A stretch of 64,000 bases of DNA from Promethearchaeota archaeon. Its GTDB lineage: Archaea; Asgardarchaeota; Hermodarchaeia; Hermodarchaeales; Hermodarchaeaceae. The DNA lies in NCBI GenBank assembly GCA_048939245.1, contig JBHLPR010000001.1, forward strand, positions 82,622-146,621. Reading direction: 5' to 3'. The position numbers and the translations under genes were made by a program. Below the pieces are notes generated by a model. That model made no database searches, was not told the DNA's origin, and worked only from the letters and a program-made list of their open reading frames with translations. Positions 19,154-58,303 of the stretch are shown piece by piece. Numbering within the stretch: the first letter of the stretch is position 1; the number at the start of each line of letters is the position of its first letter.

Positions 19154-20152
19154 ATGCTGGAGGCTAAGCATGTGGGCCTACGTGAGTTCGTAATACGGCG
19201 TATAATTAACAGCTTCATCCTTATTCTCGGCGCCATCATCTTCAATTTCTTCGTTTTTCGGATGATGCCCGGTGATCCTGTCTCGATTTTAATAAGCCCC
19301 TCAATCGATATTAACCAACAAGAACTTGCAGATGCACTTCGCGCCATGTGGGGCTTAGACCAACCCCTCCATGTTCAATTTGGTCAGTATATCGTAAATA
19401 TGTTTACCTTCAACTTCGGAATTTCGTTTTCTGAAGGGAATCGCCCCGTGGTTGAATCTATTGCCGCTCGTCTTCCCAACACATTACTTCTGATGGGTAC
19501 CGCGGCAATTGTCACCATCGTCATCGGCATCGCCACTGGTATCGCCGCTGCGTCTAAGCGAGGCGGCGCTTTTGACATGGGCATGGTCACCACAGCGCTG
19601 GTCCTCTATTCAGTTCCCACCTTCTGGCTGGGGATGATGTTTATCCTACTCTTTGGCTTCTACATTCCTATTTTCCCAATGGGGGGCACCGTTAGTGTAC
19701 CCGCCCCGACTGATCCACTTGCTTATTCCTTGGATGTGGCATGGCACCTCGTACTTCCTGCCCTCACCCTGGCACTGGTTTCTTATGGTGGCTACATGCT
19801 CGTCATGCGGAACACCCTCATTGATGTGCTCACCGAAGACTATATCGTCACCGCCCGCGCTAAAGGCGTCGATGAACGCACGGTCTTATACAAGCACGCC
19901 CTCCGGAATGCGATTCTTCCCTTGGTGACCATGATTGCGTTAACCTTCGGGTTCCTCATTACCGGAGCGACCTTAACGGAAACGGTGTTTAACTGGTATG
20001 GTATTGGACGGTTGATATTCGACTCCGTCATTGCTCAGAATTATCCGGTCTTGCAGGCGCTTTTCTACATCATGGCGTTAACCGTGATTGTGGCGAACTT
20101 CATTGCCGATATTCTCTATGGCTTCTTGGATCCCCGTGTTCGATATGACTAA
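19154..20152 (+). CDS. oppB: Oligopeptide/dipeptide ABC transporter permease (OppB/DppB type)
   Basis: The N-terminus FVIRRIINSFILILGAIIFNFFVFRMMPGDP and the EAA-like loop EDYIVTARAKGVDERTVLYKHALRNA are diagnostic. Confidence 0.9.
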   Translation: MLEAKHVGLREFVIRRIINSFILILGAIIFNFFVFRMMPGDPVSILISPSIDINQQELADALRAMWGLDQPLHVQFGQYIVNMFTFNFGISFSEGNRPVVESIAARLPNTLLLMGTAAIVTIVIGIATGIAAASKRGGAFDMGMVTTALVLYSVPTFWLGMMFILLFGFYIPIFPMGGTVSVPAPTDPLAYSLDVAWHLVLPALTLALVSYGGYMLVMRNTLIDVLTEDYIVTARAKGVDERTVLYKHALRNAILPLVTMIALTFGFLITGATLTETVFNWYGIGRLIFDSVIAQNYPVLQALFYIMALTVIVANFIADILYGFLDPRVRYD

Positions 20153-20157
20153 TCTAG

Positions 20158-22254: not shown

Positions 22255-22268
22255 GGAGGAAAAAGAAA

Positions 22269-23246
22269 ATGGCTGTACTTGATGTAAACCACCTCAAGGC
22301 TTACTTTTTCATCGAAGCAGGTGCCGTTAAGGCTGTTGACGACGTATCTTTTGAATTAGAACGGGGAGAAACGCTCGGTTTAGCAGGAGAATCTGGTTGT
22401 GGCAAATCAACCACAGCTTACGCGCTCCTCAACCTCCTTCCTTACCCTGGACGCATTGTTGAAGGAGAAGTATTGCTTGATGGTGAAGATCTCACAAAGA
22501 AATCTCCTTCTGAGATGCGGAAGATACGTTGGGATGAAATCTCAATGGTCTTTCAAGGAGCAATGAATGCACTGAACCCAGTCCTGCGCATTGGTGACCA
22601 GATTGTTGAGGCTATTGTGCTCCATGAAAATGTTTCAACTGATGAAGCGTACAAGAAAATGGAAGACATCCTGGAAGTCGTGGGTGTTGATCCAACCAGA
22701 GCCCACAACTATCCCCATGAATTTAGTGGGGGAATGAAGCAGCGTGTCATGATCGCAATGGCATTAGTCACTGAACCCAAAGTCCTCATTGCTGATGAAC
22801 CCACCACTGCTCTTGATGTAACCGTTGAGGCACAAGTTTTGAAACTTCTCAAAAGTCTACAACAAAAATTTCAGCTATCCATTATCCTCATTACACATGA
22901 TCTTGCCACCATCGCCGAAGCGTGCGATCGCGTAGCGATTATGTATGCGGGACAAATTGTCGAACTAGCTGATGTAATTACCATCTATAAGGAACGGCTT
23001 CATCCCTATACCGAGGGTCTCATTCGATCAGTCCCCAGCTTATTGGGTACAGAAAAACTCGTACACATTCCTGGCGCTCCACCTGGGCTGGTCAACCCTC
23101 CCTCTGGGTGTCGCTTCCACCCACGTTGTCCGATAGCAACAGAAATCTGTACTCGAGAAGAACCAGAATTTCGGGAAATCAAAGAGAAGCATTTCGTCGC
23201 ATGCCATCATGCAGATCAACTCTGGGGTAAAAACGTCTGGAAGTAA
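22269..23246 (+). CDS. oppD: Oligopeptide ABC transporter ATPase (OppD type)
   Basis: Walker A is GESGCGKST, the signature is FSGGMKQR and Walker B is LIADEPTTALD. The C-terminal Cys motif is GCRFHPRCP..C...C. A strong AAGGAGG sits upstream. Confidence 0.9.
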   Translation: MAVLDVNHLKAYFFIEAGAVKAVDDVSFELERGETLGLAGESGCGKSTTAYALLNLLPYPGRIVEGEVLLDGEDLTKKSPSEMRKIRWDEISMVFQGAMNALNPVLRIGDQIVEAIVLHENVSTDEAYKKMEDILEVVGVDPTRAHNYPHEFSGGMKQRVMIAMALVTEPKVLIADEPTTALDVTVEAQVLKLLKSLQQKFQLSIILITHDLATIAEACDRVAIMYAGQIVELADVITIYKERLHPYTEGLIRSVPSLLGTEKLVHIPGAPPGLVNPPSGCRFHPRCPIATEICTREEPEFREIKEKHFVACHHADQLWGKNVWK

Positions 23247-23251
23247 TAACT

Positions 23252-24271
23252 TTGGCTACAACTGAAACTCTAATCAAAGTTCGGAACCTGAAAAAATACT
23301 TCCCGGTTCGCCGCGGTCTTATCGCTCAACTCGTTAGTCGCGAACAGATTTGGGTGAAGGCAGTTGACGATGTATCCTTCGACATTATGAAAAACGAAGT
23401 CTATGTGCTCGCGGGCGAATCTGGCTGTGGTAAGACAACCACAGGTCGTGTTATTCTAAACCTCACACCACCCAGTGATGGAAGCATCACCTATCAAGGT
23501 ATGGATTTAACTGAAATCACCAAACAGGAAATGAAAGCCCTTCGTCCCAAACTCCAAATTATTTTCCAAGATCCCTATGAGAGTCTCAATCCCCGACTTA
23601 GTATTCATGATAGCATTGGAGAAGCACTTCAAGTCAATCGGCTTGCAGAAAGCCGCGAAGAATTAACTGAACGTATCAAAATGGCTATGGAAGATGTCCG
23701 ACTCATTCCCCCTGAAGACTTCATATATCGATACCCTCACATGCTCAGTGGTGGACAGCGTCAACGTGTTGTCATTGCTCGTGCAATCGTTACACAACCC
23801 GAATTCATTGTCGCCGACGAACCCGTTTCTATGCTTGATGCTTCCATACGTGCTGAAATTCTCCAGCTCCTCAAAGACTTAATCAAAAAATATGATCTCA
23901 CCTATCTTTACATCACCCACGACTTAGCCTCTGCTCGGTATATCGGGGACCGGATTGGCATCATGTATTTGGGAAAAATTGTAGAGTATGGTCCCGTCGG
24001 ACGGGTAATCGATAATCCCAAACATCAATACACAGCGATTCTCGTTTCTGCGGTTCCCATTCCCGACCCAACTCTAGTTCATACACGACGCGCTCCCGTC
24101 GGTGAAGTTCCTTCGCCGATTAATCCACCACCAGGCTGTCGGTTCCATACCCGTTGCCCCTTGGCGGATGAGAAATGTCGACTCGAAGAACCTCCTTTCA
24201 AAGAGGTTGAAAAAGATCACTATGCTGCCTGTTGGCATTGGTTTGATCCCAAACAATGGGAAGACGAATGA
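23252..24271 (+). CDS. oppF: Oligopeptide ABC transporter ATPase (OppF type)
   Basis: Walker A is GESGCGKTT, the signature is LSGGQRQR and Walker B is IVADEPVSMLD. The C-terminal Cys motif is GCRFHTRCP..C. Confidence 0.9.
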   Translation: MATTETLIKVRNLKKYFPVRRGLIAQLVSREQIWVKAVDDVSFDIMKNEVYVLAGESGCGKTTTGRVILNLTPPSDGSITYQGMDLTEITKQEMKALRPKLQIIFQDPYESLNPRLSIHDSIGEALQVNRLAESREELTERIKMAMEDVRLIPPEDFIYRYPHMLSGGQRQRVVIARAIVTQPEFIVADEPVSMLDASIRAEILQLLKDLIKKYDLTYLYITHDLASARYIGDRIGIMYLGKIVEYGPVGRVIDNPKHQYTAILVSAVPIPDPTLVHTRRAPVGEVPSPINPPPGCRFHTRCPLADEKCRLEEPPFKEVEKDHYAACWHWFDPKQWEDE

Positions 24272-32481: not shown

Positions 32482-33006
32482 TTATTGTTCAAGCTTTTCA
32501 ATGATTTGTTCTGTTAGCATTTGAAATGCATCTTCGACCTTATCGCCACTCATCGCACTAGTCTCAACGAAGGAACAGCCATAGCGTTCGACCCATTTCT
32601 GAATTTCCGCTTTCTTTATTTCACGCTTTTTCTTCAAGTCCGACTTGTTACCAATTAAAAGGATTTCAACATCACCAGCATGTTCTCGGATTTCTCGCAT
32701 CCACGTCTCGATTGCTTCAAGGGTATCCGGTCGTGTGAGGTCGAAAACTAACATCGCACCATCAGTTTGTTTGTAGAAGCTTGAACGATAAGGCGCAAAA
32801 CGTTCTTGGCTGGCAATATCCCAAATGATGAGTCGCGCCACCTTATCTTCGAGTTCAATGATTTTGTATGCAAAGTCTACTCCAATTGAGGCTTTATATT
32901 CGCGTTCAAAGCGGTTTTCAACGTATTTGAGAATCAAGCTGGTTTTACCTACTGCAGGATCACCGACTAAAAGTATCTTAAACTCATAATAGGGCTGTTT
33001 GGCCAT
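32482..33006 (-). CDS. Rab/Ras-like small GTPase (174 aa) with atypical G3 motif
   Basis: G1 is GDPAVGKT, switch I is KASIGVDF, G3 is WDIASQERF (canonical WDTAGQE), G4 is GNKSD and G5 is ETSAM. There is no C-terminal Cys for prenylation. Confidence 0.85.
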   Translation of the reverse strand: MAKQPYYEFKILLVGDPAVGKTSLILKYVENRFEREYKASIGVDFAYKIIELEDKVARLIIWDIASQERFAPYRSSFYKQTDGAMLVFDLTRPDTLEAIETWMREIREHAGDVEILLIGNKSDLKKKREIKKAEIQKWVERYGCSFVETSAMSGDKVEDAFQMLTEQIIEKLEQ

Positions 33007-33129: not shown

Positions 33130-34113
33130 CTATTCTGCTGCTTCTTCTACAGCGAGGTTGGTCCAACTCTTTGTGCGAAAGAAATCATAGAAACTCGCTT
33201 CAACCACAGTTAGTTCGCGCGGAACTAGGTTCTGTCCTCTTAAAGCTTTGAGAAAATCTGGTATATGGTTATGAGGGTACTCCACAAAGGCTTTGAGGCT
33301 TCCTCGACCGGATCGGATAGCCGTTTCGACGAAGGGGATTTCTTCGACCTGCCGGAGGGTATCTTCGGTGAGCCTATCAAATGTTACTTCAATCGCTTCA
33401 CCGCCTCCAGTAAGGGACTGGATCAGCTCATCAGGGTGTCCTTGAAGGGAGATTCTACCTTTTTCAAGGAGAACGACTCGATTGCAATATTCGACGACTT
33501 CCAGGTCATGGGAGATAAGAACCATTGAGGTTCCAAAGTGGTAATTGAGTTGTTTAAGATAATTGAGAAGTTCGTGCCGGAGGTGGGCATCGAGACCTGT
33601 AGTTGGTTCATCCAAGAGTAGAATCGGTGGCTGGTGAATCAGACCAACGCAGATAGAAACCCGTTTTCGTTCCCCACCACTAAGAAACTTGACTGGTTTT
33701 TGCATCAGATCCTCATCAAAGCCTAGTATATCCAAGAGTTCAATAGCTCGCTTTCGTATTTCTTTTCCTTCGAGAGCATACATTCGTCCAAAGAAGTGAG
33801 CGTTCTCCAAGGCTGAAAAAGGAAAGTAAAGACTTTGGTCTTCATGCTGAGGGACATACCCTGTAGCATAATGAATTGCGGTTGCTTCCTTTGAAACATC
33901 ATATCCTGCAATTCGGGCATACCCTGAATATGGTTTCAATTGAGCCGTCATTACCCGTAAACATGTTGTCTTACCAGACCCCGACGCTCCAATGACACCC
34001 AGAATTTCTCGTTCCCTAGTGTAGAAAGTGATGTCTTCAAGAATTTTTACTCGACCAATCTTCACTGCGGTTTGGTTGAATTCAATAATTTTGGGGGGCT
34101 TTTGCTCTGTCAT
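33130..34113 (-). CDS. ABC-2-type transporter ATPase
   Basis: Walker A is GASGSGKTT, the signature is LSGGERKR and Walker B is LLLDEPTTGLD. An extra C-terminal ~90-aa domain is typical of ABC-2 ATPases. The start lies 4 bp from the stop of the upstream giant gene. Confidence 0.9.
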   Translation of the reverse strand: MTEQKPPKIIEFNQTAVKIGRVKILEDITFYTREREILGVIGASGSGKTTCLRVMTAQLKPYSGYARIAGYDVSKEATAIHYATGYVPQHEDQSLYFPFSALENAHFFGRMYALEGKEIRKRAIELLDILGFDEDLMQKPVKFLSGGERKRVSICVGLIHQPPILLLDEPTTGLDAHLRHELLNYLKQLNYHFGTSMVLISHDLEVVEYCNRVVLLEKGRISLQGHPDELIQSLTGGGEAIEVTFDRLTEDTLRQVEEIPFVETAIRSGRGSLKAFVEYPHNHIPDFLKALRGQNLVPRELTVVEASFYDFFRTKSWTNLAVEEAAE

Positions 34114-34117
34114 GAAT

Positions 34118-37100
34118 TTATACCCCCGTCTCCTTTGCTAGTTCCCGTAACCGTTTAAGCATATTTTCGAGTCGATTAGCTGGTTCACCTGAGGTGATTC
34201 TCAGTTTCTCGATACGATCCATACGACGGTCGGTTAGAGTCCACTCTATTTCGCGGATAAGCGCTTGGGTCGTATTCAACGTATTATCAATATTTTGAAT
34301 GGTTTGTTCATCAAGGGTTGGTGTTCGCATCCTTCGTTTTCGACGGTACTGGTTTGTGAAGTAGAGACTGATGATGAGGATAGTGAAAAGTGTGACAAGG
34401 AAAATTTGGATAATCATGATGGTGAGGTAATCTGGCTCTTGGGGAGGTGGCGGTTTCTCTGGGGTAGGAAGATAGTAGAAATGCATGAAAGTCGTGGTAC
34501 TCGAATAATCGCCTGGAATAGTGAAGACAATGATTGAGAAAGTTTGAGGGGTGTTTACGGATTCATCGAGTCCAGTCCAGTTTGCAAAAAAGAACGACCC
34601 ATAGCGCCCCTCTGTCACTTCGAAAGCAATGAAGAATGATTGGGTACGATTCGGAAGAACATAGACAACAAACATGGATAATCCTTCGACACCATCTCCT
34701 GTAGTGTTATATGCATCAATAACAAAACCGGCATCATTCCCAATATAAAATGACGAATTCATACCTCCTGTAATCCGAAGGGTTAGGTGGACAGTTTTTC
34801 GGAACAAATAGTGAATAGTTTGATTAACAAAGCGGAGATTATCGAACTTAAAAAGATACGAATTCCCAAACACAGCAGAACAGCCCAAAACATAGAGTTC
34901 TTTATTATCATCATTCAGGTAGATTCCAAAGTTAGTTCCATTGACCCATGCAAAGGGTTGGGCCGTTCCGATATCAGTAAGAACGGTGCCTTCAATAGTG
35001 CTTATGCTATTTACTCCAGAGGTAAATGGAGCTGAAGGGTGCAATTCAGTGGTATTCAATCCTGTAACTCTCCCCCCCAATTGCACGCCATAACTTGAAA
35101 GCAACTGATTTAAAGTTGTATGATTCGATGATTCGGGCTGATCAGCCAGTACCAAAACTTTGAACCCATTATCAATGAATTCTGAAATCGCGGAGGCCTC
35201 ATTCAGAGTAAATCCTTTTTCAGGGTCACAGAGAACGAGTCCATCAAATAACTGAAGAATTGTTGAGTTGATTTCAGAAATCAGAGGGATCTCTGAGAGA
35301 TTGAGTTGTGCTGAGGCGAACAACTCTCGTAATCGCGAATAGCCTGTGAAAAGGCTATCTCCAATTTCATTAAACAGGGAAAAGAGTACATCAAGATTCA
35401 AATCAGTAAAATCAAAGTCTTCAAGATTCGACAAGTTCAGTCCTTGATTATGAATGGAATCAAAGAGAATGACAGCTTTGGGGTAGGTCACATTGATAAT
35501 AAAGGGGAGGGTGAACTGCCAACCATCAGAGGCGCTTAGACTTAGGTTTCCATAATAAGGTCCCGCTTCAATGAACGTGGGAATGAAGAAGGTGATCTGG
35601 AATTGGGTTCCGACAACTATGTCTGTGATCTGTTCCTTGGCAATCTCGGGTGGAGTATCCCATTGTGTGATATTCCGATCAATAGGAAAATCAAAGGCAC
35701 TCTCATAAAACTCAGCAATTCTGACCGTGAGCGAGTTAATGGGGGTTGTGGTGAGAAGAGTGAAATTGTAGATGGCGTAATCATTAGGGAAATAGAGCAT
35801 CATAGGTCCAAATGGAAGGATGTGGGGAATCAGTAACCGCATTCGAGGTGGTGAACTTATGAACACATCACGGTATACGAAATTGTCCAGGGGATAAAGA
35901 TCTTGAGGACTTGTGTTGAGAATGAGATCAAAGTCGATGGCAGGTGCGACAATCCATCCTGCGAAATAGATGTCTGAGACTTCAGGGTTCCATTCAACCG
36001 AAAGTTTCTGAAATTGGAATGGCTTAAAGATGCCCAATTGAAAATACCGCGCAAAGATAGTACCCCCGAAAGGTTGTGAACGATTGGTGAAATATGCGGC
36101 AATCGAATCGACACCAGCGTCTCCAATATTGAGTACAATCACCGATGTTTGATAAGTTGAATTTGTAGTTCCTGTGCGCGCTAAGTCTTTTTGAATCATA
36201 CAAAGATCAGTGAGCGGAACCGCAACTGAAGCATATTCTGTCTGGTTAATACCATGAACTAACGCTGTGAAATTTTGTCCAAAGCCGAGAGTCATCGAAA
36301 TATTCAACGTGCCTGTTTCTGCTGGTAGATTTCCTAATTGCCATTGAGTGGCAAAGCCCACGCCTTCATCGCTTGAGTAGGTAGGTGTCCCATTTAGCGT
36401 TTCATTTTGTAATTGATCACTGACCTCGTCATAAGCTCCCACTTGAACACTTGAGAAAGGATTTGAAGCATTGATGCCAATAAATTGGTCAATACGGGTT
36501 GTTTCATTTATCGGAAGGACATCTCCACGGATATTAAACATATGTGATGTAGCGTTATAGAATCCTTGCTGAATCGACGTATCATTGGCACCACTGAATA
36601 GGTCGAAATCCCACAGACTATAAAGCCGAATATTGTTGACATTTTCTGACCCAATATTAATGAAAAAGAATGAGATGCGAAACGCATTGGCTGAAGGACC
36701 TGAACTGATTTGCCAAGTCTCAATACGGGGAATTATAAGCAGGTTCTCAAAAGACAGGATACCTGTTGTGCGGACATACTCGCCATAAGGTAAACTGGTC
36801 CAATGGAATTCTTGTTCAATGTCGAGAAAAGTAAAGGGAACTGGGTCATTATCTCCAACGGCAAGATAGAACATCCCAAACAACATGTGAAATAAGGTCA
36901 TGTTGGTGATACTACTCGTAACAAGGGCTCCAATTGCAGTAGAATATGTGCTCATGAGCAAGGTCACATTTTCTGCAGTAGCTTCACTAATGATTAACCC
37001 ATAATAGGGAAGTCCAAGACCGACACTTCGTGCTCGATAATCAGATGAAAATGGATTATGCAGTTCGGATAACTCATTATACGCACGACTTGCACTGAGA

Positions 37101-38509
37101 AGACCTGCCCCCTCAGCATTAGGCTCATTAAAAAGTGGTATTGCTCCTCGACGAATCCCGATTGATAACGCTTCTGGGGTAGCGAATCGGCACCCCTCAA
37201 GAATAAGACAGGCGACACCAGCTGTAATTGCTGAGGAAGCAGCAGTTGTACTTGCTAGAGTATAATTCTCATTGAAAGGCGTACCGAAAACACTTCCTCC
37301 AATAAAATCGATGTCCTCCGGAGAGATATCAATTGAGATGTTACCAATCGCAGTTGGAAAAATATTGTATAACGATGCTGAAATGATATCAACGCCCGGT
37401 GCAATTAGATCTGGTTTTGTGCGAAAATCGAAGGTAGGCCCACGACTACTGAAATCAGGGACCAGACCTGTTGCTGTATCGTAAGCACCCACAGTTAATG
37501 CTGCCAAAGATTCTCCCGGTGACATAATGGTTAGGTGGTTTGGTCCCCTATCTCCTGCAGCGCAGATTACTAGAACACCACCTTCTGTAGCTTTCATAAC
37601 TGCCTCCGAGAGGGGATCTCCGGGCATGCCAATTGTTGAGAACGGTAATAATATGATATCTGCACCATTGGTCAAACTCCATTCGATACCTCGGATTATC
37701 CAGGAGGAATAACCCGTTCCGTCGCTCAGAATCACTTTTGCGCTCATTAGTTGCGCTCCTGGGGCAATCCCAGTATAGTTTCCCTGAGACGCTGAACCAG
37801 TGCCTGCAACAAGGGCAGCACAGTAGGTACCATGGCCATTCAAATCAAAAGGAAATGGATCTCCTTCAGCAAAGGACACCTGTGCTAGAACTTTGGGGTC
37901 ATTAGTTGTTTCGTTGTCATCCATGTCATCAAGGTCTGGGTGTGTAACATCGATACCAGTATCTAAGACCGCTACAATTGTATGGGAACCATTTAAACCA
38001 AGATTGTATAATGGGGTGGCATCAATGGTCTCTTTAGGGTGGATGTAACCGTTTGAGGCAATAGGACTTTCTGAATCATATCCTTCAGGGCTATCAAGTT
38101 GAAATTTAAAATCGGTCCAGACTTTTTGGATTTGAGAAAGCCCTGCGAGGTTCTTAAGCTCCCCGACAGTCGTTTGAAAAGAGAGAGCATGTATTAGTTT
38201 GTGATAAGTTCTGATTTTAGCCATTGCTGCAGTCTGAAGGATAGCCCGTTGAGCAGCTCGCCAATTAGTCCTTTCCGACAACTTGGCTACAACATCTACG
38301 GAGGCATTCGGGTCATTTGAAGCTGAAATAAAATCTAAGAGTGGCTTTGATAACTTAGACTCGGGGTCTGTTACCTGTGTGAATTTCGTGAAGAACCGAT
38401 TTGAAAGTTGACCTGCAGCAAAGACGGCGGTGACTAATAACAAGATCACTAGTAGTAATGCTGAGAGCGAATCCAGATTCCTCGGCGTCTTCTGCTTCAG
38501 GTGTTGCAC
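34118..38509 (-). CDS. 1463-aa double-anchored surface protein: I9-like propeptide + degenerate S8 subtilase-like domain + GldG/ABC-auxiliary-like module + TM + cytoplasmic coiled-coil tail
   Basis: The N-terminal anchor is LSALLLVILLLVTAVFAAG. The subtilase Asp (VAVLDTGIDVTHPDL) and His (NGHGTYCAALVAG) are present. The oxyanion position reads AAGDRG and the Ser position reads STTAASSAITAG. Res ~1009-1238 resemble ABC_transp_aux. The C-terminus is PPPPQEPDY, a TM segment and a 79-aa charged tail. Confidence 0.8.
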   Translation of the reverse strand: MQHLKQKTPRNLDSLSALLLVILLLVTAVFAAGQLSNRFFTKFTQVTDPESKLSKPLLDFISASNDPNASVDVVAKLSERTNWRAAQRAILQTAAMAKIRTYHKLIHALSFQTTVGELKNLAGLSQIQKVWTDFKFQLDSPEGYDSESPIASNGYIHPKETIDATPLYNLGLNGSHTIVAVLDTGIDVTHPDLDDMDDNETTNDPKVLAQVSFAEGDPFPFDLNGHGTYCAALVAGTGSASQGNYTGIAPGAQLMSAKVILSDGTGYSSWIIRGIEWSLTNGADIILLPFSTIGMPGDPLSEAVMKATEGGVLVICAAGDRGPNHLTIMSPGESLAALTVGAYDTATGLVPDFSSRGPTFDFRTKPDLIAPGVDIISASLYNIFPTAIGNISIDISPEDIDFIGGSVFGTPFNENYTLASTTAASSAITAGVACLILEGCRFATPEALSIGIRRGAIPLFNEPNAEGAGLLSASRAYNELSELHNPFSSDYRARSVGLGLPYYGLIISEATAENVTLLMSTYSTAIGALVTSSITNMTLFHMLFGMFYLAVGDNDPVPFTFLDIEQEFHWTSLPYGEYVRTTGILSFENLLIIPRIETWQISSGPSANAFRISFFFINIGSENVNNIRLYSLWDFDLFSGANDTSIQQGFYNATSHMFNIRGDVLPINETTRIDQFIGINASNPFSSVQVGAYDEVSDQLQNETLNGTPTYSSDEGVGFATQWQLGNLPAETGTLNISMTLGFGQNFTALVHGINQTEYASVAVPLTDLCMIQKDLARTGTTNSTYQTSVIVLNIGDAGVDSIAAYFTNRSQPFGGTIFARYFQLGIFKPFQFQKLSVEWNPEVSDIYFAGWIVAPAIDFDLILNTSPQDLYPLDNFVYRDVFISSPPRMRLLIPHILPFGPMMLYFPNDYAIYNFTLLTTTPINSLTVRIAEFYESAFDFPIDRNITQWDTPPEIAKEQITDIVVGTQFQITFFIPTFIEAGPYYGNLSLSASDGWQFTLPFIINVTYPKAVILFDSIHNQGLNLSNLEDFDFTDLNLDVLFSLFNEIGDSLFTGYSRLRELFASAQLNLSEIPLISEINSTILQLFDGLVLCDPEKGFTLNEASAISEFIDNGFKVLVLADQPESSNHTTLNQLLSSYGVQLGGRVTGLNTTELHPSAPFTSGVNSISTIEGTVLTDIGTAQPFAWVNGTNFGIYLNDDNKELYVLGCSAVFGNSYLFKFDNLRFVNQTIHYLFRKTVHLTLRITGGMNSSFYIGNDAGFVIDAYNTTGDGVEGLSMFVVYVLPNRTQSFFIAFEVTEGRYGSFFFANWTGLDESVNTPQTFSIIVFTIPGDYSSTTTFMHFYYLPTPEKPPPPQEPDYLTIMIIQIFLVTLFTILIISLYFTNQYRRKRRMRTPTLDEQTIQNIDNTLNTTQALIREIEWTLTDRRMDRIEKLRITSGEPANRLENMLKRLRELAKETGV

Positions 38510-38515
38510 TCTTGG

Positions 38516-40180
38516 TTACACCTCCAATTGTCGACCGGTGATTAAAATAAAGTAATCAGTCATATCCACGCCCATTTTTGGCTTGACGCTCTTAATTTGG
38601 ATATCTTGTGCTTGCAGTGCTCGGACAACTCGCTCTGACATTTCAATCAAAGGTACTTCACTGAAAATCTTGATGAGTTCCCCTCTCTCTAAGACATGGA
38701 TAATGCCTTTCACATCCTGAAGCAGTGACGCTATCCCAGGTCGGGGTTGCTGAAGAATGATTCCAACTGCATAGCCCTTTCCAGGAAGAGACGCTTTTAA
38801 TTCCGCTGGGCTTCCAAAGGCTACAAGGCTGCGTTCTCGCATGAACACACCCACGATATCACAATACTCAGCTTCTCCAGGATAATGGGTAACAACTATC
38901 ATGCTAGTGCCATATTCTTGATTCAAATAATCCAAATAATCCCACAGCTCACTTCGCATATCAGGATCCAATCCGGAGGTTGGTTCATCTAAAATGAGTA
39001 ATTGAGGCCGGTGAACCATGGAAATAGAAATTGAAGCCCGGCGCTTTTCACCTCCAGAAAGAGTTCTAACACTCTGATTTCCTTTTTCAAAAATCCCCAT
39101 TTCACGAAGGAGTACTTTCCCTCGGCGTACTAGTTCCTGTTCAGGTATTCCATATTGTTTCCCAAACTCAATGATGTTTTCCAAAGGCGTAAAATTCTGA
39201 TACATATATCCTAAATCTTGTGGAACAAAGCCGAAGATTGGTTTTACCTGTTTTCGTTGAGTTGATTTTACTCCACCGATGATAACCTGACCTCGAGTGG
39301 GGATTATATCACCAATTAAGGCACGAATTGTTGTGGATTTTCCTGATCCCGATTCCCCGATAATTCCCATAATTTTTCCACTTGGGAGTTTAAAGGAGAC
39401 ATCACGGATAATGTCAAAGTTATCATCGACGGTAAATGTGAGGTTTTCGGCAACAACGACATTCTCCACTTTACCCCGTGTACGAGCATATGCTGGTGTG
39501 AAGAGCATTTTTTGTGCAAGGATGTCAGGAACAATACTGATTAATTCCCGCATAATTTCGGGAGCAGTTTCTCGACCCCCAATTGTTAATATCTGTGCGG
39601 TATCATCAGACGTGGAGTGGGCTGGTGTCGTACGTAATTCCAGCAATCCGACTCTGAGACGTTCCATCCTAGCGTTTGTCACAGTGCCTTGGATATGCCT
39701 TTCCTTACCATTCTCATCGAGTCCCCATATTTGAGCATCAACTTCTGTATATGCAAGTAGTTCTTGGACACGTTTCACCGCATGATCAATTTCCTCTCCA
39801 TCATAATAGAAATCGTCGTGAATGTTTCGTCGAAGCCAATTCATCAACACCAATTGTTTTGCGGCCACTTCTTCTCGTTCGGTTCTCTCTGATCCAATTG
39901 TTAAAACGCTACCTTTGAGACTCTCAGGCCCTTTCTTTACTGAATTCACTAAAAGAGCGATTCGTCTTTGGCGTCCTCTTCTGGTAATATCAAGTAATCT
40001 TCCCTCGATGGCGATTTCCTCATCAGAGCTGCGGAGCTTACCTGTAATCTGTGAATGGAGTTCACGATCACTTCGTTCCTCAATCCAATCTAAAGCATCA
40101 TCGAACCGTGAACCTGCAAAATAGTTCTTCTCAACAAATACGGGAACATCAGTTAATGTTTGCATTCCACTCACATCCAT
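38516..40180 (-). CDS. ABC-2-type transporter ATPase with 239-aa N-terminal extension (internally duplicated module)
   Basis: Walker A GESGSGKST lies at res 275-283. The signature is LSGGEKRR and Walker B is LILDEPTSGLD. The N-terminal extension has two related ~50-aa units ending VLTIGSERTE and ILTIGGRETA. Confidence 0.85.
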   Translation of the reverse strand: MDVSGMQTLTDVPVFVEKNYFAGSRFDDALDWIEERSDRELHSQITGKLRSSDEEIAIEGRLLDITRRGRQRRIALLVNSVKKGPESLKGSVLTIGSERTEREEVAAKQLVLMNWLRRNIHDDFYYDGEEIDHAVKRVQELLAYTEVDAQIWGLDENGKERHIQGTVTNARMERLRVGLLELRTTPAHSTSDDTAQILTIGGRETAPEIMRELISIVPDILAQKMLFTPAYARTRGKVENVVVAENLTFTVDDNFDIIRDVSFKLPSGKIMGIIGESGSGKSTTIRALIGDIIPTRGQVIIGGVKSTQRKQVKPIFGFVPQDLGYMYQNFTPLENIIEFGKQYGIPEQELVRRGKVLLREMGIFEKGNQSVRTLSGGEKRRASISISMVHRPQLLILDEPTSGLDPDMRSELWDYLDYLNQEYGTSMIVVTHYPGEAEYCDIVGVFMRERSLVAFGSPAELKASLPGKGYAVGIILQQPRPGIASLLQDVKGIIHVLERGELIKIFSEVPLIEMSERVVRALQAQDIQIKSVKPKMGVDMTDYFILITGRQLEV

Positions 40181-40186
40181 CTGCGT

Positions 40187-41374
40187 TTACGCTAGTGTTC
40201 GTTTCCTCCATAAGACCAAGATGGAGATGAAAATTCCTCCAATTATGTAAATTAGAATCCGTACAATTTGCTCCCAGCTTGTAATCAATGGGAGTCCTTT
40301 GAATGCAGTTTCACGGATTAGCTGCATTCCAAGGTTCATTGGGAGAAATTCCGAGATAATTCCCACATCAATGAACATGCCACTGAGAATCATCATACCC
40401 AATAGTAGGAAAAGAAATCCCTGGTTGGCTTGAAGACGAGAGGTTGAGAATGAGGATATAACAACTCCTGATACTGCTCCAGCTAATGCCATTGAGCTCA
40501 CAACAATCATGAGGGTGAAAAGGTCGGTGCGAAGATTCAATTGGAATCCAACAATCCACAGCACCAATAATAGGATTCCTTGTATCGTTCCTATGATGGT
40601 ATACGCGGCTATTTTTCCAAGAATCACTTCTACTTTACTTGTGGGAGTTAGCAACATTCGGCGAAGTGGAATATCTCCCACAATCGATTGACAGGAAATT
40701 AAAGCAATTGCCATAAAAATACAAAAGACAACCAGAAACGCTCCAACTTGAATTGCTAGGGTATCACCCTCAGGGACAAACTCGATCTCAGGAATGGTGA
40801 GAATATCACTTCGAATCCAACCTAGTTTTTCTCGAAATATCAATGTAGCTTCCGTCACAGCGATGATCGCATCGCCCTGCCCCTGTAGTTGCGTATTACT
40901 TGTATGAATATAGACAAATGCCGGGAGATTCATAGATAACGCATGTTCAAACCCATCCTCTATAACCAGGTACGCATCAATCTCAGTGTAAAAGAGAGCT
41001 GTATAAGCCACAGATTCATTTTCAAATGTCATCACAGTGACTTCTTCAAGATTTGCAAGCGTAGCCGTAAAATTCTGGGACAAATCTAAATCTGGATACG
41101 TATCAGTGGTGTCAAGGTCCACAACACCAAATAGCATTGGAACCGTTTCTGCCTGTATATCATTTTGTTGAATCGCTAAAGCAAGAGTACCTATTGTAAT
41201 AATAGGTAAAAGAAACACTAGAAGCATCGCTGTTCGATCTTTGATGATTGTTTGAATTTCCTTCCGCGTGAGCGCTAGAATTCGTTTCAGTGGTTCAGTA
41301 GCACTCATGGTGTTTAACCTCTGCTTGACTATCGATATGCCCCATAAAGATTTTTGGTTGAGACTGCCTTTCAC
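40187..41374 (-). CDS. ABC-2-family permease with large first extracytoplasmic loop
   Basis: TM1 is followed by a ~150-aa loop and then 5 TM segments, an ABC2_membrane_3-like layout. The start is more likely the ATG at 41308 (MSATEPLKR, with GAGGT 9 nt upstream) than the GTG at 41374. Confidence 0.8.
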   Translation of the reverse strand: MKGSLNQKSLWGISIVKQRLNTMSATEPLKRILALTRKEIQTIIKDRTAMLLVFLLPIITIGTLALAIQQNDIQAETVPMLFGVVDLDTTDTYPDLDLSQNFTATLANLEEVTVMTFENESVAYTALFYTEIDAYLVIEDGFEHALSMNLPAFVYIHTSNTQLQGQGDAIIAVTEATLIFREKLGWIRSDILTIPEIEFVPEGDTLAIQVGAFLVVFCIFMAIALISCQSIVGDIPLRRMLLTPTSKVEVILGKIAAYTIIGTIQGILLLVLWIVGFQLNLRTDLFTLMIVVSSMALAGAVSGVVISSFSTSRLQANQGFLFLLLGMMILSGMFIDVGIISEFLPMNLGMQLIRETAFKGLPLITSWEQIVRILIYIIGGIFISILVLWRKRTLA

Positions 41375-41511: not shown

Positions 41512-42429
41512 ATGCGGGACGAACAACCGCCGAGTAAACCAGCGGATGTTATGGCTTGGGCTAAGCGATGGCAACCTAAATGGCAAACGAAGATCACGTT
41601 TCCTGAGAATGCATTCTTTGTGAGTCTATTTGATTTCATAAATCGGACCGATGATTTAGATGCTACAATTATCACCAGCGATCATAAGTTGTTGTTGCGA
41701 TTCGAACATGCATATGATCCCGAAGGCTTCCTGTATTCGATGCGCCTACCTGATATTGATGCCACCATTGAAATCGTCCCATATAAGCCCGATTATGGTG
41801 TGCTGAAGAAACGAACCTTCACAAATCGAGCCAAGGAATTCGACCGGTTTGCCCAAAATGAATTGCTCCGCATACCCACCGAGTATCAGGGGGGGCAAAT
41901 ACGAACATTGGCTGAAGTCATGGAACTACTAGATTTTACAAAGGAAGTCATTGAGATCACTCGGGACACCCTCTTTGGTAATCCCGATCCCTCCAAATAT
42001 CGATACCTCAAAAACCCTGTTTCATTTCTTAATCTCCAAAACGGTTGGATTGTAATTCCTGATGACACCATGAAAATCAAACTAAATCTGGGTGTGGAAT
42101 ACGAACATGTCTTTCGACTATCCTACCGCTTTGATCAAAAAGAAGGACCAGTTGTTGAAAATTATCAAAAATACCAGTCTGCGCTTCAACGTCTCTCAAC
42201 GCAGACTATTCGACGCGTTTTTTCAAATCTGGGAACCTATACGTCCATAATCCATAACCCCTTTTTCAGTGATATCAGCCAACGCTTTCCCGTCAGATAC
42301 GTTGCCTTGAATAATGGGTTACTGGTGGCTTCGTTAGGGGAAGGATCTGATTGGGAAAAAGGCACCTTCGAATTCTATAAACCTACGGAAAGGAAGGATC
42401 GGTTATTCGGTTTACTGGAACCAGAATAA
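41512..42429 (+). CDS. Hypothetical protein (305 aa)
   Basis: Clean ORF divergent from the ABC operon across a 137-bp AT-rich spacer. No motif recognised. Confidence 0.5.
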   Translation: MRDEQPPSKPADVMAWAKRWQPKWQTKITFPENAFFVSLFDFINRTDDLDATIITSDHKLLLRFEHAYDPEGFLYSMRLPDIDATIEIVPYKPDYGVLKKRTFTNRAKEFDRFAQNELLRIPTEYQGGQIRTLAEVMELLDFTKEVIEITRDTLFGNPDPSKYRYLKNPVSFLNLQNGWIVIPDDTMKIKLNLGVEYEHVFRLSYRFDQKEGPVVENYQKYQSALQRLSTQTIRRVFSNLGTYTSIIHNPFFSDISQRFPVRYVALNNGLLVASLGEGSDWEKGTFEFYKPTERKDRLFGLLEPE

Positions 42430-46175: not shown

Positions 46176-48269
46176 TTATTCGATGGTACGTCCACAATGA
46201 CTACAAAACGTGGCATTCGGCGGCAATGGAGCTCCACAATGCCAACAAAACCCAGTTCGAACAGGTTTCTCATCCGCAAGACTTGATTCAACCGATGACC
46301 GATAATCAGGCGATGATGGACTTTGGGGTCGAGAGTCTGCAGGTGTCCACAAATACTCCTGGTCCTTATGCCTTCTCCGTTGAATACGTACACACACAAA
46401 GAATACAATTATTAAAATGACGGCAGCAGCGAGGATGACCCAGATAATCATTCCAACCCCAGTCACCACGAGAGAATAGTAAGCCCCAGTGTTGTCATCA
46501 GTGACATTGCGTCCACCAGCATCGATTACACTCACAAAATAGTTGACAGTCACTCCTGGCAAAAATGTACCCATCGCCCCTTCCCAGGTATCTCCACCAA
46601 GAAAGACCATGTCAATATGATACCATCGAGTATCTCCCTGGCGTTGATAAAAAATCGTAGCATTGACAATCCATGTATCATCTGTTACTTCAAGAGTGAC
46701 AATCACAAGATCCCCAAATCCAGGAACCTCTGGGCTGTGACTTACATGTGTAATAATAGGGTCCTCCAAATCCACAACGAACTGAGAAGTAATTGATAAC
46801 CGGCGCCCTGATCCAGCAAGTTCCATTATTAGGGTAGCATTATGAAGACCCGAAGTAAGTCCAGAGATATCCTGACTAGTGCCCAACCCTGTATATACTA
46901 GACCATTATCGAGGTATAATTCGTAATGATCAATTCCTGGACCTGCGGCAGTACCCGTCCATTCAATTGTGAAATTCGGTGAGAGAACGGCACTACCATC
47001 TATAGGTGAAAGAAACTGCATGAAGGCCCGTAATATTGTGACATTGTAAGAGCTACCTACTGTGTTCTCAACGACCATGGAAAATTGGCCTATGGACGAC
47101 ACGTAGGAATCCACTTGTCCCAAACCAATACCGAATGCCCCATCGTCAACAGTGGAAGTTCCAGGATGAGAATCAATCACCTTAACAATTCCTTTTCCAG
47201 ATTGAAGCGACTCATCAATGTAGGTAATAACGACTCCTTCACCACCTGCTCCAGCCCAGGGAAGTGAAGCATCGTAGCCAATTTTTCGCCGAACTTCTAT
47301 GAGGAAGTATTGTTCAGCGGTGATATTAATTCGAACTAGGTGAACACCTGAAGTACTCTGTTCAAGCGGATCAATCACAGTGGTTAGATCTGATGCGACT
47401 TCTACCGTATTGGTTGCATTCACCCAACCAAGTTGGGATTTACACCATCCCATCATGTGGGCGGGCTGGTCTCCTAAATCCATTGGACCATTCCAAGACC
47501 CTTTAGCCATTAACCCCCAATGACCGACATATTCTGCACCAGTATAATCTACATCATATAAATCGGGTAAACCCAAATCATGTCCAAATTCATGTGCCAG
47601 TACTCCCACAAAGGAAGGGTCTCCTGGCAGGCTTTCTTCGGGACTCACTGAAGCGCGGTGGATACTTACTCCATCATTTGTTGGTTCATTGAAATTCCAC
47701 CATTCACTGGACCAATAATCTCGCCAGTCATGACTCAATTCTTGTCCTTGACCTGCATGAATAATCGTTACTCCATCATAGTTTGAAAAATCCACAATCG
47801 GATCCGCTAGATCAATTGCTTCCGATATTAGATCGAATTTTGGATCACTCGGAAATGAGGTCCCATCAACATAATATTCACGATTATTTGATAGGCTGAG
47901 CCAGGGTGTAGCATCACCGGATACTTGGACCAATCCATAAGATACTTCGTCGATATAATCTTCAAGGGCGTTTATGGCATTTGTCAGAACTTCGGAAGCG
48001 TCGAAAGTATGTGTCTTATCTGTGAACTCAACTAGAATAACTATCAGATTCTTTGTTCCAGTAACCTGTTTTGAAGAATAATAAGTGTCCTGGGCAGGTG
48101 GACCATCAAGTCCAATACGCGCAGACATAGGCAACGAGGCTGGCTGTTCAAATACTGGTGTATTTGCTGAAACGTTTAGAAATAGAGGGATTGTCAGTGA
48201 AATTAGAAGGATTGACAATAACATAAATGCGGATGTATCTCGTAGCTTTTGGCTTGTGACATAAATCAA
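46176..48269 (-). CDS. M6 (immune inhibitor A-like) zinc metalloprotease, membrane anchored, with cytoplasmic zinc-ribbon tail
   Basis: A signal peptide is present. VLAHEFGHDLGLPDLYD is the M6-type HEXXH context. The C-terminal TM is VGMIIWVILAAAVILIIVFFVCV. The 70-aa tail ends CWHCGAPLPPNATFCSHCG. Confidence 0.85.
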   Translation of the reverse strand: MIYVTSQKLRDTSAFMLLSILLISLTIPLFLNVSANTPVFEQPASLPMSARIGLDGPPAQDTYYSSKQVTGTKNLIVILVEFTDKTHTFDASEVLTNAINALEDYIDEVSYGLVQVSGDATPWLSLSNNREYYVDGTSFPSDPKFDLISEAIDLADPIVDFSNYDGVTIIHAGQGQELSHDWRDYWSSEWWNFNEPTNDGVSIHRASVSPEESLPGDPSFVGVLAHEFGHDLGLPDLYDVDYTGAEYVGHWGLMAKGSWNGPMDLGDQPAHMMGWCKSQLGWVNATNTVEVASDLTTVIDPLEQSTSGVHLVRINITAEQYFLIEVRRKIGYDASLPWAGAGGEGVVITYIDESLQSGKGIVKVIDSHPGTSTVDDGAFGIGLGQVDSYVSSIGQFSMVVENTVGSSYNVTILRAFMQFLSPIDGSAVLSPNFTIEWTGTAAGPGIDHYELYLDNGLVYTGLGTSQDISGLTSGLHNATLIMELAGSGRRLSITSQFVVDLEDPIITHVSHSPEVPGFGDLVIVTLEVTDDTWIVNATIFYQRQGDTRWYHIDMVFLGGDTWEGAMGTFLPGVTVNYFVSVIDAGGRNVTDDNTGAYYSLVVTGVGMIIWVILAAAVILIIVFFVCVRIQRRRHKDQEYLWTPADSRPQSPSSPDYRSSVESSLADEKPVRTGFCWHCGAPLPPNATFCSHCGRTIE

Positions 48270-48495: not shown

Positions 48496-49056
48496 TTATT
48501 TACCTCGCTCTTGCTGATGGGCTTGGTAAATCATTGAAGCTAAGGTGGTGAAGGCTGCACTGACCTGATGACCAGTTTTCGCTGAGGTCTCTTCGTATTG
48601 AAATAGGCCCAGTTTCTTGGCTATACTCTCCCCTTGCGCTCGAGTGATTTTCCGTTCTTTCTCCAAATCTGCCTTATTGCCAAGTAATATTAACAGTGGC
48701 TTAGGTCCCACGGCTTCACGAAAGGCTTCAACCCACTTTGGAAGAGCATCAAGGGTCTGAGGGCGAGCTAAATCAAAGACCAAAATTCCTCCAGACGCTC
48801 CCTGACAATAACGGGTGCGTAGGTCTCGGAAAATATCCTGTCCTGCTAAATCCCAAATTAAAAGTTTGAACAGGTGTGAGCCAATCTTTGCATCATAAGT
48901 ACTTATATCAATCCCAAGAGTTCGGATATAATCCCGCTCAAATTTACCGGTGACATATTTGTTAACAAGACTCGTCTTCCCAACCGCGGCTTCTCCGAGA
49001 GTGACTAGCTTATATACTGCATCAAATCGTTTTTCTTCATCAGGAATTTTACTCAC
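48496..49056 (-). CDS. Rab/Ras-like small GTPase (186 aa), canonical motifs
   Basis: G1 is GEAAVGKTS, switch I is YIRTLGIDI, G3 is WDLAGQDIF, G4 is GNKAD and G5 is ETSAK. There is no C-terminal Cys. Confidence 0.85.
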   Translation of the reverse strand: MSKIPDEEKRFDAVYKLVTLGEAAVGKTSLVNKYVTGKFERDYIRTLGIDISTYDAKIGSHLFKLLIWDLAGQDIFRDLRTRYCQGASGGILVFDLARPQTLDALPKWVEAFREAVGPKPLLILLGNKADLEKERKITRAQGESIAKKLGLFQYEETSAKTGHQVSAAFTTLASMIYQAHQQERGK

Positions 49057-56639: not shown

Positions 56640-57433
56640 TCAATATTCAACCTCTTTCGGAGCTCTTTTACAAAATCTTCAGAAGCCGCATTAAACATTC
56701 GGAATTTATGAACGATTGTGTCAAAGCTTGCACCCTTAGCAGAAAACATTTCAATTTCTGAATCGACGTTTGCCTGGGGAACAGGACCCCAACACCCTTC
56801 ACAGGGGAAGCCCACACTCGGACACAGAGCTCCACAGCCAGCACGGGTAATTGGTCCTAAACAAAGTTTGCCTTGTTTCATCAGGCAAGCATTTTCCTTC
56901 AAGCGACATTCAACGCAAACAGCATAGTTCTTCTTTAGCGGTTCTCCTCCACTGAGCAAGGCAATGACCATCTCAATGAATTCCTCACCATTAATCGGAC
57001 AGCCCTGCAATTCGTAATCAACTTTCACATATTCTTTAAGGGGCAAAACGTTAGGCAAAGTCTTCACATGGGATGCATCAGTATAGACATTTTGTTTGAG
57101 CTCCTCAATATTACGACCATTTCGCATGGCATTAACCCCGCCTGTAGTCGCACAGGCTCCCATGGCAATCAGAATTTTTGTTTTCTCACGGAGTTCTTTT
57201 AATTTCTTAAGCTCATCCTCATTAGTTACAGATCCTTCGATGAAGCAAATGTCATAGGGTCCAGGATGGGTTGCTGAACTGCCCATACGAAACTGGACCA
57301 GGTTAATGGCTCCTAGAATATCCAACAACTGTTCTTCTTGGTTAAGGATTTCCAGCTGACAACCAGCACAACAAGTGAAACCAAAAAAGGCAACGACAGG
57401 TTTCTTTTCATTTTCTGCCATTCTGTTTTTCAC
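56627..57433 (-). CDS. hydD: [NiFe]-hydrogenase small (delta) subunit
   Basis: VAFFGFTCCAGCQLEIL provides the proximal-cluster Cys, and additional Cys clusters lie in the C-terminal half. It overlaps hydA by 13 bp. Confidence 0.85.
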   Translation of the reverse strand: MKNRMAENEKKPVVAFFGFTCCAGCQLEILNQEEQLLDILGAINLVQFRMGSSATHPGPYDICFIEGSVTNEDELKKLKELREKTKILIAMGACATTGGVNAMRNGRNIEELKQNVYTDASHVKTLPNVLPLKEYVKVDYELQGCPINGEEFIEMVIALLSGGEPLKKNYAVCVECRLKENACLMKQGKLCLGPITRAGCGALCPSVGFPCEGCWGPVPQANVDSEIEMFSAKGASFDTIVHKFRMFNAASEDFVKELRKRLNIEWLK

Positions 57434-57443
57434 CTAGCGTATA

Positions 57444-58301: not shown

Positions 58302-58303
58302 AT

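Follow-up and report, generated by a model that had tools for sequence, protein, structure and literature searches.

What does a protein named as a serine peptidase do between the genes of an ATP-binding cassette (ABC) system? This question is raised by a 64,000-nucleotide stretch of DNA (hereafter the window) from a Promethearchaeota archaeon of the Hermodarchaeales (GenBank assembly GCA_048939245.1, contig JBHLPR010000001.1, positions 82,622 to 146,621 of the forward strand), in which four minus-strand genes, encoding an ABC-2 permease, a long ABC ATPase, a giant protein of 1463 amino acids (aa) and a short ABC ATPase, follow each other in this order with intergenic gaps of 6, 6 and 4 bp (Table 1). 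The coordinates and the 4-6 bp spacing given for these four open reading frames in an initial annotation, which was made from the letters of the DNA, are exact, and Shine-Dalgarno-like motifs (GGAGGT and GGGGGT) are found upstream of the third and fourth genes, respectively. NCBI lists a protein identical to the giant protein under the name "S8 family serine peptidase [Promethearchaeota archaeon]", and more than 100 relatives are known at full length, the nearest named ones being from Hermodarchaeota (69-74% identity); hence, the four reading frames are real genes and not chance occurrences. We observed domain identities, a loss of catalytic residues, a gene linkage and an enrichment of sequons, each of which is detailed below, and we favor, on balance, an Asgard-specific ABC-2 complex resembling the GldA-GldF-GldG (GldAFG) system, in which the products of the four genes would form one membrane complex with the giant protein as its non-catalytic, glycosylated accessory subunit. 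The export step that we attach to this complex is held with less confidence than the complex itself.

Architecture of the giant protein

The S8-like head that had been proposed for the giant protein is a genuine Peptidase_S8 domain (PF00082 at residues 174-448, E 2.7e-43) with a strong match to the Thermococcus subtilase Tk-SP (3afg, E 1e-48), but it is catalytically dead, which had escaped the initial annotation. In the window protein, the catalytic D183 and H226 are retained, whereas the nucleophile serine is replaced by A423 (GTS to TTA) and the oxyanion asparagine by D320 (AAGN to AAGD). Across 59 homologues, the nucleophile position is occupied by Ala (44), Thr (12), Phe (two) and Ser (one), and the oxyanion position by Asp in every case; the catalytic His is retained in 52 (lost in seven) and the catalytic Asp in 56 (lost in three). 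With the serine left in 1/59 and the oxyanion Asn in 0/59, an active protease was rejected. The deposited 3afg chain has Ala at the nucleophile position as well, and we take it to be the engineered S359A pro-form of Tk-SP. The domain has thus lost catalysis and yet is the best conserved one of the giant protein (49% identity between clades and 74% within the clade), which identifies it as a pseudoenzyme under purifying selection. The Asp at the position of D320 is invariant while the other former catalytic positions drift, suggesting that the old active site may have gained a new role (e.g., metal or cation binding).

Ahead of the S8 domain, the I9-like propeptide expected from the initial annotation holds up by alignment, in that a profile built from 24 homologues extends over residues 18-418 of pro-Tk-SP (3afg) and takes in its propeptide (E 5e-78), but not by domain model, as none of the 24 giant-family members matches Pfam I9. 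Since a dead protease would be unable to process itself, this propeptide probably remains attached, and the dead S8 domain is probably a binding module that keeps its propeptide on. Weak NCBIfam matches to CspC and CspBA are seen at residues 326-390. The window encodes a further S8 protein of 1591 aa, three genes away from the cluster, which keeps D, H, N and S all intact and has a ~200-aa insert between its Asp and His motifs; the catalytic loss is therefore specific to the giant family. This 1591-aa protein, whose position is kept in the closest related locus (L004), may be the true extracellular protease of the region.

Hydropathy analysis of the giant protein gives exactly two hydrophobic segments, at residues 10-38 and 1359-1387. 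The N-terminal one is the least conserved region of the protein (15% identity between clades), and its uncharged hydrophobic run, with a median of 16 residues in the 59 homologues and a length of at least 19 in only 11, gives way in most cases to Pro or polar residues. The segment most likely serves as a cleavable signal peptide, and its resemblance to one makes the earlier description of the protein as double-anchored doubtful. Most likely, the giant protein is a glycoprotein with the type I membrane topology that OST48 and site-1 protease (S1P) have as well. Its ectodomain displays 35 N-X-S/T sequons against 12.7 expected by composition (z 7.2), an enrichment that is not seen in the two ATPases, and is predicted to be located outside the cell and to be glycosylated.

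The region between the head and the C-terminal third, residues 470-1008, had been described as unassigned beta-rich sequence, and beta-rich it is: the AlphaFold2 (AF2) model of residues 471-1009, built on a 60-sequence alignment (predicted local distance difference test, pLDDT, 87.5), is all-beta with about five sandwich domains. Foldseek searches with this model return multi-sandwich proteins only (TM-score 0.14-0.19), including the macroglobulin (MG) domains of alpha-2-macroglobulin, integrin alpha legs, transglutaminase barrels and ciliary ASH-domain proteins; accordingly, we regard the region as a generic stalk without an enzyme fold. The top Foldseek match raised the idea of an alpha-2-macroglobulin-like protease trap, which was rejected, as the similarity (TM-score 0.16) covers generic MG/immunoglobulin (Ig) domains only, with no thioester domain. 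The stalk has no sequence match in the PDB and is specific to the giant family: across 1.84 billion representatives, a full HMMER scan detects it in only 34 clusters, where it occupies a constant relative position in proteins of 1400-1780 aa.

C-terminal to the stalk, the initial annotation had seen a GldG/ABC_transp_aux-like module at residues 1009-1238, an assignment that is borne out by Pfam, by profile comparison and by fold. Residues 1046-1145 match IFT52_GIFT with 30.0 bits (cut-off 27.2) and ABC_transp_aux with 32.6 bits (cut-off 34.7), and another member of the family (P0112) exceeds the latter cut-off with 35.2 bits. Among 24 giant-family members, there are matches to IFT52_GIFT in 23, ABC_transp_aux in 22, DUF4350 in 18 and MBTPS1_4th in four, the last being confined to the Hel clade (best E 2.2e-11) and absent from the window protein. 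The AF2 model of residues 1000-1463 (pLDDT 88.2) comprises an alpha/beta domain (~1012-1236), a beta-sandwich (~1241-1348), a transmembrane (TM) helix (1361-1393) and three tail helices. By Foldseek, it is related to the N-terminal GIFT domain of IFT52 (TM-score 0.73, E 2e-10), to human and yeast OST48/Wbp1 (6s7t_G, E 3.5e-13; 6ezn_G, E 6.7e-11; TM-score 0.32-0.35), with the membrane-proximal sandwich aligning along with the GIFT domain and the TM helix over ~447 columns, and to the S1P ectodomain (E 5.5e-6). A profile of the GIFT module from 20 loci, when compared with the PDB, gives the same set of relatives, namely IFT52 (E 1.7e-14), S1P (0.006), WBP1 (0.055) and OST48 (0.6), so that both the fold and the profile search place a GIFT fold in residues 1009-1238. 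In a collection of 5.8 billion proteins, this profile recovers eight matches, mostly fragments of the family together with three stand-alone GIFT proteins of 560-660 aa, one of which (P0154) has no ABC genes nearby.

The PPPP linker, the C-terminal TM segment and the 79-aa charged tail that had been noted at the end of the protein are all present, and the tail (17 K/R and 12 D/E) is predicted to be helical. A tail motif, IDNTLN...DR..K...GV, is conserved in the aligned sequences of the window clade, Ranarchaeia and Thorarchaeota; tblastn matches extend to the C-terminus of the giant protein in Jord and Freya loci; and the tail is 73% identical within the window clade, on par with the S8 domain.

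The ABC core, gene linkage and surroundings

The permease matches PF12698 (ABC2_membrane_3, E 2.2e-22), and also PF12679 and PF01061. Hydropathy gives six TM segments, the first two of which are joined by an outer loop (residues ~71-201); the extracytoplasmic loop of the initial annotation is thus present, with a length of ~130 aa instead of ~150 aa. There is no match to FtsX in the Pfam scan, the 4-TM plan with a periplasmic domain of FtsX-type permeases (the type VII mechanotransmitting systems MacB, FtsEX and LolCDE) is not the one seen here, and the best NCBIfam match is to the SagH-family permease, with 35.7 bits against a cut-off of 450. A PDB sequence search with the permease returned no solved structure. 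Its true start is probably M23 (ATG at 41308), which would give a protein of 373 aa, the length that the closest relatives also have.

Both ATPases match ABC_tran of Pfam and, end to end, the drrA subfamily profile TIGR01188 (E 4e-52 for the long ATPase, profile positions 4-302; E 4.8e-53 for the short ATPase, which consists of a nucleotide-binding domain (NBD) and a C-terminal domain). The Walker A, Q-loop, signature, Walker B-Glu and H-loop motifs are canonical in both, and the catalytic motifs of the long ATPase are invariant across 13 orthologues; the two NBDs look catalytically competent and of the DrrA/ABCA type. The two proteins share 33% identity over the NBD and C-terminal domain, and the nearest solved relatives of the short one are the NBDs of ABCA4, ABCA3, ABCA7 and ABCA1 (E ~6e-47). 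With no binding protein, and with a permease and NBDs of the ABC-2 and DrrA/ABCA exporter type, the system is not a nutrient importer, in agreement with what had been proposed before.

The N-terminal extension of the long ATPase matches the TrmB effector-binding model PF11495 in the window protein (23.9 bits, cut-off 22.2) and in 10 of 13 orthologues (best E 3.5e-9). It is kept in every non-Hel lineage; a single-sequence search of the PDB gave no match, and the 5.8-billion-protein collection yielded one partial match only. In Helarchaeota (L002, 4878-6758, and L072, 4694-6556, both on the minus strand), it is replaced by an N-terminal winged-helix array with matches to the PCI, E3_UFM1_ligase, DDRGK and TrmB helix-turn-helix models, and the short ATPase of this lineage is longer (406-418 aa).

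A scan of one genome per species across 185,579 species recovered 232 relatives, and the best 80 loci among them were analyzed. They come from Hermod-, Thor-, Jord-, Freya- and Helarchaeota and from unclassified Asgard metagenome-assembled genomes; a Ranarchaeia locus that was fetched separately (L003) is colinear too. Sufficient flanking DNA for an assessment is available in 52 of the 80 loci, and 43 of these have the colinear order permease, long ATPase, giant protein and short ATPase, with median gaps of 3, 4 and -8 bp. Five more have the four genes adjacent but rearranged, either with the ABC genes divergent from the giant gene (Jord/Freya) or with both ATPases on the opposite strand (Hel), so that the synteny asked about in other Asgard genomes is found in 48 of 52 loci; the other 28 loci, whose flanks are short, all fit the four-gene unit. 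A linkage that survives rearrangement at ~30% protein identity points to function and not to mere operon inheritance. The unit is conserved and, in the searches made, restricted to Asgard archaea.

The tail of the giant protein and the TrmB-like extension of the long ATPase co-occur: the tail is present wherever the extension is, and both are absent in Helarchaeota, whose giant proteins stop ~15 residues past the TM helix. From this pattern, we infer that the tail probably docks on the extension.

In the window, the unit is flanked downstream by a Ras/Rab-like small GTPase, and the same position is likewise occupied in seven related Hermod-type loci; as it is a neighbor in the window clade only, its membership in the unit is uncertain. 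Upstream lies a divergently transcribed gene for a soluble protein, which is found at this place in Hermod-type loci only. The GC content of the cluster (0.42-0.44) matches that of the remaining window, for which reason a horizontal-transfer island was rejected. In 48 loci of the Thor and Ran lineages, a fifth gene, which is not in the window, overlaps the stop codon of the short ATPase and takes the place that the GTPase has in the window clade. Its product in the Thor locus L001 (13413-20147, plus strand) is a type I surface protein of 2244 aa with an integrin-alpha-like outline. It combines a signal peptide, 23 TSP3 calcium repeats (19% Asp overall) and FG-GAP-like propeller blades, which pass the Pfam threshold for BBS2_Mid, with a single TM helix and a cytoplasmic domain of 120 aa. 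Elsewhere in the window, there are a second Ras/Rab-like small GTPase, an Opp/Dpp-type peptide importer with no adjoining gene for a substrate-binding protein, in which one of the permeases (698 aa) has a large insert separating its N-terminal TM domain from the core, a 1619-aa reading frame, an M6 metallopeptidase and a NiFe-hydrogenase cluster (Table 1).

Table 1. Positions in the window of the four-gene unit, the parts of its products and other features.
Feature	Position	Strand	Size or basis
ABC-2 permease gene	41374-40187	minus	395 aa, GTG start
Long ABC ATPase gene	40180-38516	minus	554 aa
Long ATPase, N-terminal extension, cytoplasmic	40180-39461	minus	~240 aa; PF11495, TrmB effector-binding-like
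Long ATPase, DrrA/ABCA-type NBD and C-terminal domain of ~90 aa	39460-38516	minus	ABC_tran E 5.7e-28; drrA
Giant protein gene	38509-34118	minus	1463 aa, GTG start
Giant residues 1-38, N-terminal hydrophobic segment	38509-38396	minus	hydropathy 10-38
Giant residues ~46-160, subtilase propeptide (I9-like)	38374-38030	minus	alignment to pro-Tk-SP 3afg
Giant residues 161-470, catalytically dead S8 domain	38029-37100	minus	PF00082
Giant residues 471-1009, stalk of ~five beta-sandwich (Ig/MG-like) domains	37099-35483	minus	AF2 model
Giant residues 1010-1238, GIFT domain (GldG/IFT52/OST48/S1P type, alpha/beta)	35482-34796	minus	Pfam, profile, fold
Giant residues 1239-1348, membrane-proximal beta-sandwich	34795-34466	minus	AF2 pLDDT 88
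Giant residues 1349-1387, PPPP linker and single C-terminal TM helix	34465-34349	minus	hydropathy 1359-1387; helix in model
Giant residues 1388-1463, charged three-helix cytoplasmic tail	34348-34121	minus	helices pLDDT 85-90
Short ABC ATPase gene	34113-33130	minus	327 aa
Ras/Rab-like small GTPase	32482-33006	minus	Ras family E 4.9e-51; 123 bp downstream of short ATPase
Divergently transcribed gene for a soluble protein	41512-42429	plus	305 aa; no Pfam match, no hydrophobic segment
1619-aa reading frame	5681-10540	plus	no Pfam match at E <= 1e-4
Opp/Dpp-type peptide ABC importer	19154-24271	plus	two permeases, two ATPases
S8 protease with intact catalytic residues	25601-30376	plus	1591 aa
M6 (immune inhibitor A-like) metallopeptidase	46176-48269	minus	C-terminal zinc ribbon
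Second Ras/Rab-like small GTPase	48496-49056	minus	
NiFe-hydrogenase cluster of four genes	55359-59395	minus	large and small, FAD/NAD-binding and 4Fe-4S subunits

The proposed complex and competing explanations

We posit that the four gene products assemble with two copies of the permease and one each of the long ATPase, the short ATPase and the giant protein. A homodimer of the ABC-2 permease would turn its ~130-aa loops to the outside and would be driven by a heterodimer of the two DrrA/ABCA-type ATPases, one of which carries the sensor-like, TrmB-resembling cytoplasmic extension. The single giant copy would be the dedicated outer accessory subunit, held after signal-peptide cleavage by its C-terminal helix, with the GIFT domain and the beta-sandwich foot near the membrane and able to meet the permease loops, the ~five sandwich domains as a stalk, the dead subtilase at the tip and the cytoplasmic tail placed on the extension of the long ATPase. 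ATP hydrolysis would most likely carry an amphipathic or glycan-bearing substrate out to that face of the giant protein which lies by the GIFT domain, through an ABCA/Wzm-type export or extraction, possibly alongside a conformational effect on the giant ectodomain.

Several points weigh against such a complex or parts of it. The ABC_transp_aux match of the window giant protein falls just below the cut-off, and at E <= 0.1 NCBIfam gives no GldG equivalog match for it. The giant gene stands alone, with no ABC genes within 8 kb, in four of the 52 assessable loci (the Jord-type L031, L039, L045 and L048); in these, it is full-length, tail included, and the partners are either encoded elsewhere or the proteins are solo-acting paralogues. 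The co-variation of tail and extension comes from one evolutionary event, in Helarchaeota, and is thus a hint of docking and not a proof of it. The TrmB-like assignment of the extension is itself only moderate, coming from one Pfam model, while the profile search of the PDB with the extension found no TrmB structure and one chance match to an enolase. Finally, as GldAFG has no known substrate, the analogy with it gives little mechanistic information.

The main rival explanation is pure mechanotransmission, in which nothing would cross the membrane and the ATP cycle would reshape the giant ectodomain via the permease loops, the helix and the tail, and in Thorarchaeota this action would extend to the co-encoded integrin-like surface protein of 2200 aa. 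NosDFY, FtsEX and MacB are ABC systems that act on outside partners, and an action like that of FtsEX or NosDFY would here bring about regulated adhesion or surface assembly. The tracking of the ATPase extension by the conserved giant tail, the pairing of two non-identical ATPases with a single permease gene, the fifth gene that overlaps the short-ATPase stop in 48 loci (with a type I surface protein as its product in L001) and the likeness of the stalk to integrin legs and MG-domain arrays would all be in keeping with this. However, the permease is a 6-TM ABC-2 protein and not of the 4-TM FtsX/MacB type of known mechanotransmitters, the NBDs are closest to those of true lipid exporters, and the integrin-leg matches (TM-score 0.15-0.18) are generic for beta-sandwich arrays; we consider this explanation unlikely, though well worth keeping in view.

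A role in glycosylation strikes us as more doubtful still. Here, the GIFT domain, sandwich and TM helix would act on lipid-linked oligosaccharides in the manner of OST48/Wbp1, with the ABC-2 core flipping or presenting them and the TrmB-like domain as the sensor of a cytoplasmic sugar. TrmB effector domains bind sugars, and PF11495, the TrmB effector model, matches the ATPase extension; ABC-2 exporters often move lipid-linked glycans. OST48/Wbp1 are also the best fold matches of residues 1000-1463, TM helix included, the ectodomain is strongly enriched in sequons, and GIFT domains have been proposed to bind sugars (PMC7226087). On the other hand, the OST48 similarity reaches a TM-score of only 0.32-0.35 with a root-mean-square deviation (rmsd) of ~15 Å, none of the 24 members has a DDOST sequence match, WBP1 is retrieved only at E 0.055, and the window has no AglB/STT3 or glycosyltransferase genes. 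Moreover, Asgard homologues of WBP1 have been reported in Heimdallarchaeia only (PMC10307638), a class from which we found no named relative of the giant protein: one record bears the label Hodarchaeota but falls within the Hermod-type clade, and the match to a Heimdallarchaeaceae protein is limited to the S8 domain.

Two further explanations are close to excluded. In the first, the giant protein would be an extracellular subtilisin-type scavenging protease beside an unrelated ABC-2 efflux pump, as its database name, S8 family serine peptidase, and a window rich in protein catabolism (Opp/Dpp importer and intact S8, M6 and M20 peptidases) might suggest, but its GIFT domain is a hallmark of ABC-2 accessory subunits (PMC5682007). 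The nucleophile Ser is gone in 58 of the 59 homologues and the oxyanion Asn in all 59, with His or Asp also lost in 10, and the four genes stay adjacent across classes at ~30% identity and through rearrangements, all of which leaves such a protease very improbable. The least probable is an export-immunity module for a ribosomally synthesized and post-translationally modified peptide (RiPP) or bacteriocin, like a membrane-anchored NisP-type subtilisin with a NisFEG/SagGHI-type immunity pump, since, even with SagH as the best NCBIfam match of the permease and with pairs of an S8 protein and an ABC-2 pump known from lantibiotic-type clusters, the S8 domain would be unable to process a leader peptide, the SagH match is far under its cut-off, and neither the window nor the conserved neighborhood of the 80 loci has genes for precursor peptides or modification enzymes, for which reason it was rejected.

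Significance and relation to known systems

The ABC-2 complex that we favor would be a conserved machine of four or five genes and probably among the largest surface structures of these cells; to our knowledge, very little is known about Asgard cell envelopes. For ABC biology, it would bring together an ABCA/DrrA-like core, a heteromeric ATPase pair, a sensor-like domain and an accessory subunit reaching both sides of the membrane. More than 100 Asgard proteins carry the label "S8 family serine peptidase" without the nucleophile and the oxyanion residue, and surveys that count these as proteases consequently credit Thor- and Hermodarchaeota with too great a capacity for extracellular proteolysis.

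The giant protein has the domain order of S1P and finds its closest solved relatives in IFT52 and OST48, making the origin of the eukaryotic GIFT proteins testable by phylogeny. It would be a bold guess, to which we give little credence at present, that the Asgard family represents the prokaryotic stem from which the membrane-anchored GIFT proteins of eukaryotes arose, with the S1P architecture descended from an archaeal ABC-2 accessory subunit; the GIFT modules of OST48 and IFT52 might have descended likewise. If true, this would be a new eukaryote-signature link, with its start within an ATP-driven surface complex. In the literature that we searched, no paper connects Asgard archaea to site-1 protease or IFT52.

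Among known systems, GldA-GldF-GldG of Flavobacterium is alike in that an ABC-2 permease and an ATPase adjoin a membrane-anchored GIFT/ABC_transp_aux accessory protein, GldG being a 559-aa transmembrane partner of GldA and GldF that is encoded downstream of gldF (PMC5682007), and in that no substrate is known in either system. It differs in that GldG, at ~560 aa, is without the subtilase and the beta-sandwich stalk, both of which the giant protein has, and in that it works with one ATPase, whereas the Asgard unit has two different ones, of which one bears a TrmB-like extension; the Asgard unit is, furthermore, archaeal, has no gliding link and lacks an NCBIfam GldG equivalog match.

The initial annotation knew of no characterized fusion of a subtilase to a GldG-like module, but S1P (MBTPS1/SKI-1) is one, with a signal peptide, prodomains, S8, a P-like beta-sandwich, GIFT, TM helix and tail in this order (PMC11231238). 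The giant protein shares this order, is linked to S1P by the Foldseek and profile matches given above (E 5.5e-6 and 0.006) and, in the Hel clade, by the Pfam MBTPS1_4th matches (best E 2.2e-11). Unlike the giant family, which is without the Ser and the Asn, S1P is active (D218/H249/S414/N338); it has one P-like sandwich where the giant protein has about five and another one after the GIFT domain; and it has no ABC partner, whereas the giant protein is ABC-linked and larger. The S8 domain of the giant protein is nearest to the archaeal Tk-SP, and S1P is absent from its 60 best solved S8 relatives.

OST48/Wbp1 resemble the giant protein in their type I topology, GIFT domain, second lumenal domain, single C-terminal TM helix and short tail, but show no sequence-family match to it, differ in inter-domain geometry (rmsd ~15 Å) and, in the case of OST48, work with STT3 and not with an ABC transporter. 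The N-terminal GIFT domain of IFT52 is the closest solved relative of the giant GIFT domain by both profile and fold; IFT52 is a cytoplasmic, soluble component of the ciliary transport train, whereas the giant GIFT domain would be extracellular and membrane-tethered. The clostridial germinant receptors CspC and CspA offer a functional analogy only: they are subtilase-fold proteins that have lost their triad and act by binding, but they belong to an unrelated lineage and a spore-coat context and are without membrane anchor, GIFT domain or ABC partner. With DrrAB/ABCA-type transporters (type V fold), the Asgard unit shares NBDs of the drrA subfamily, with ABCA1/3/4/7 as the nearest solved ones, and a permease layout in which TM1 and TM2 of a 6-TM unit are separated by a large outer domain, but it differs from them in its separate polypeptides, heteromeric NBDs, N-terminal sensor-like domain and giant accessory subunit. 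The system thus combines known kinds, with an ABC-2 accessory subunit that is of the GldG type and has an S1P-type architecture.

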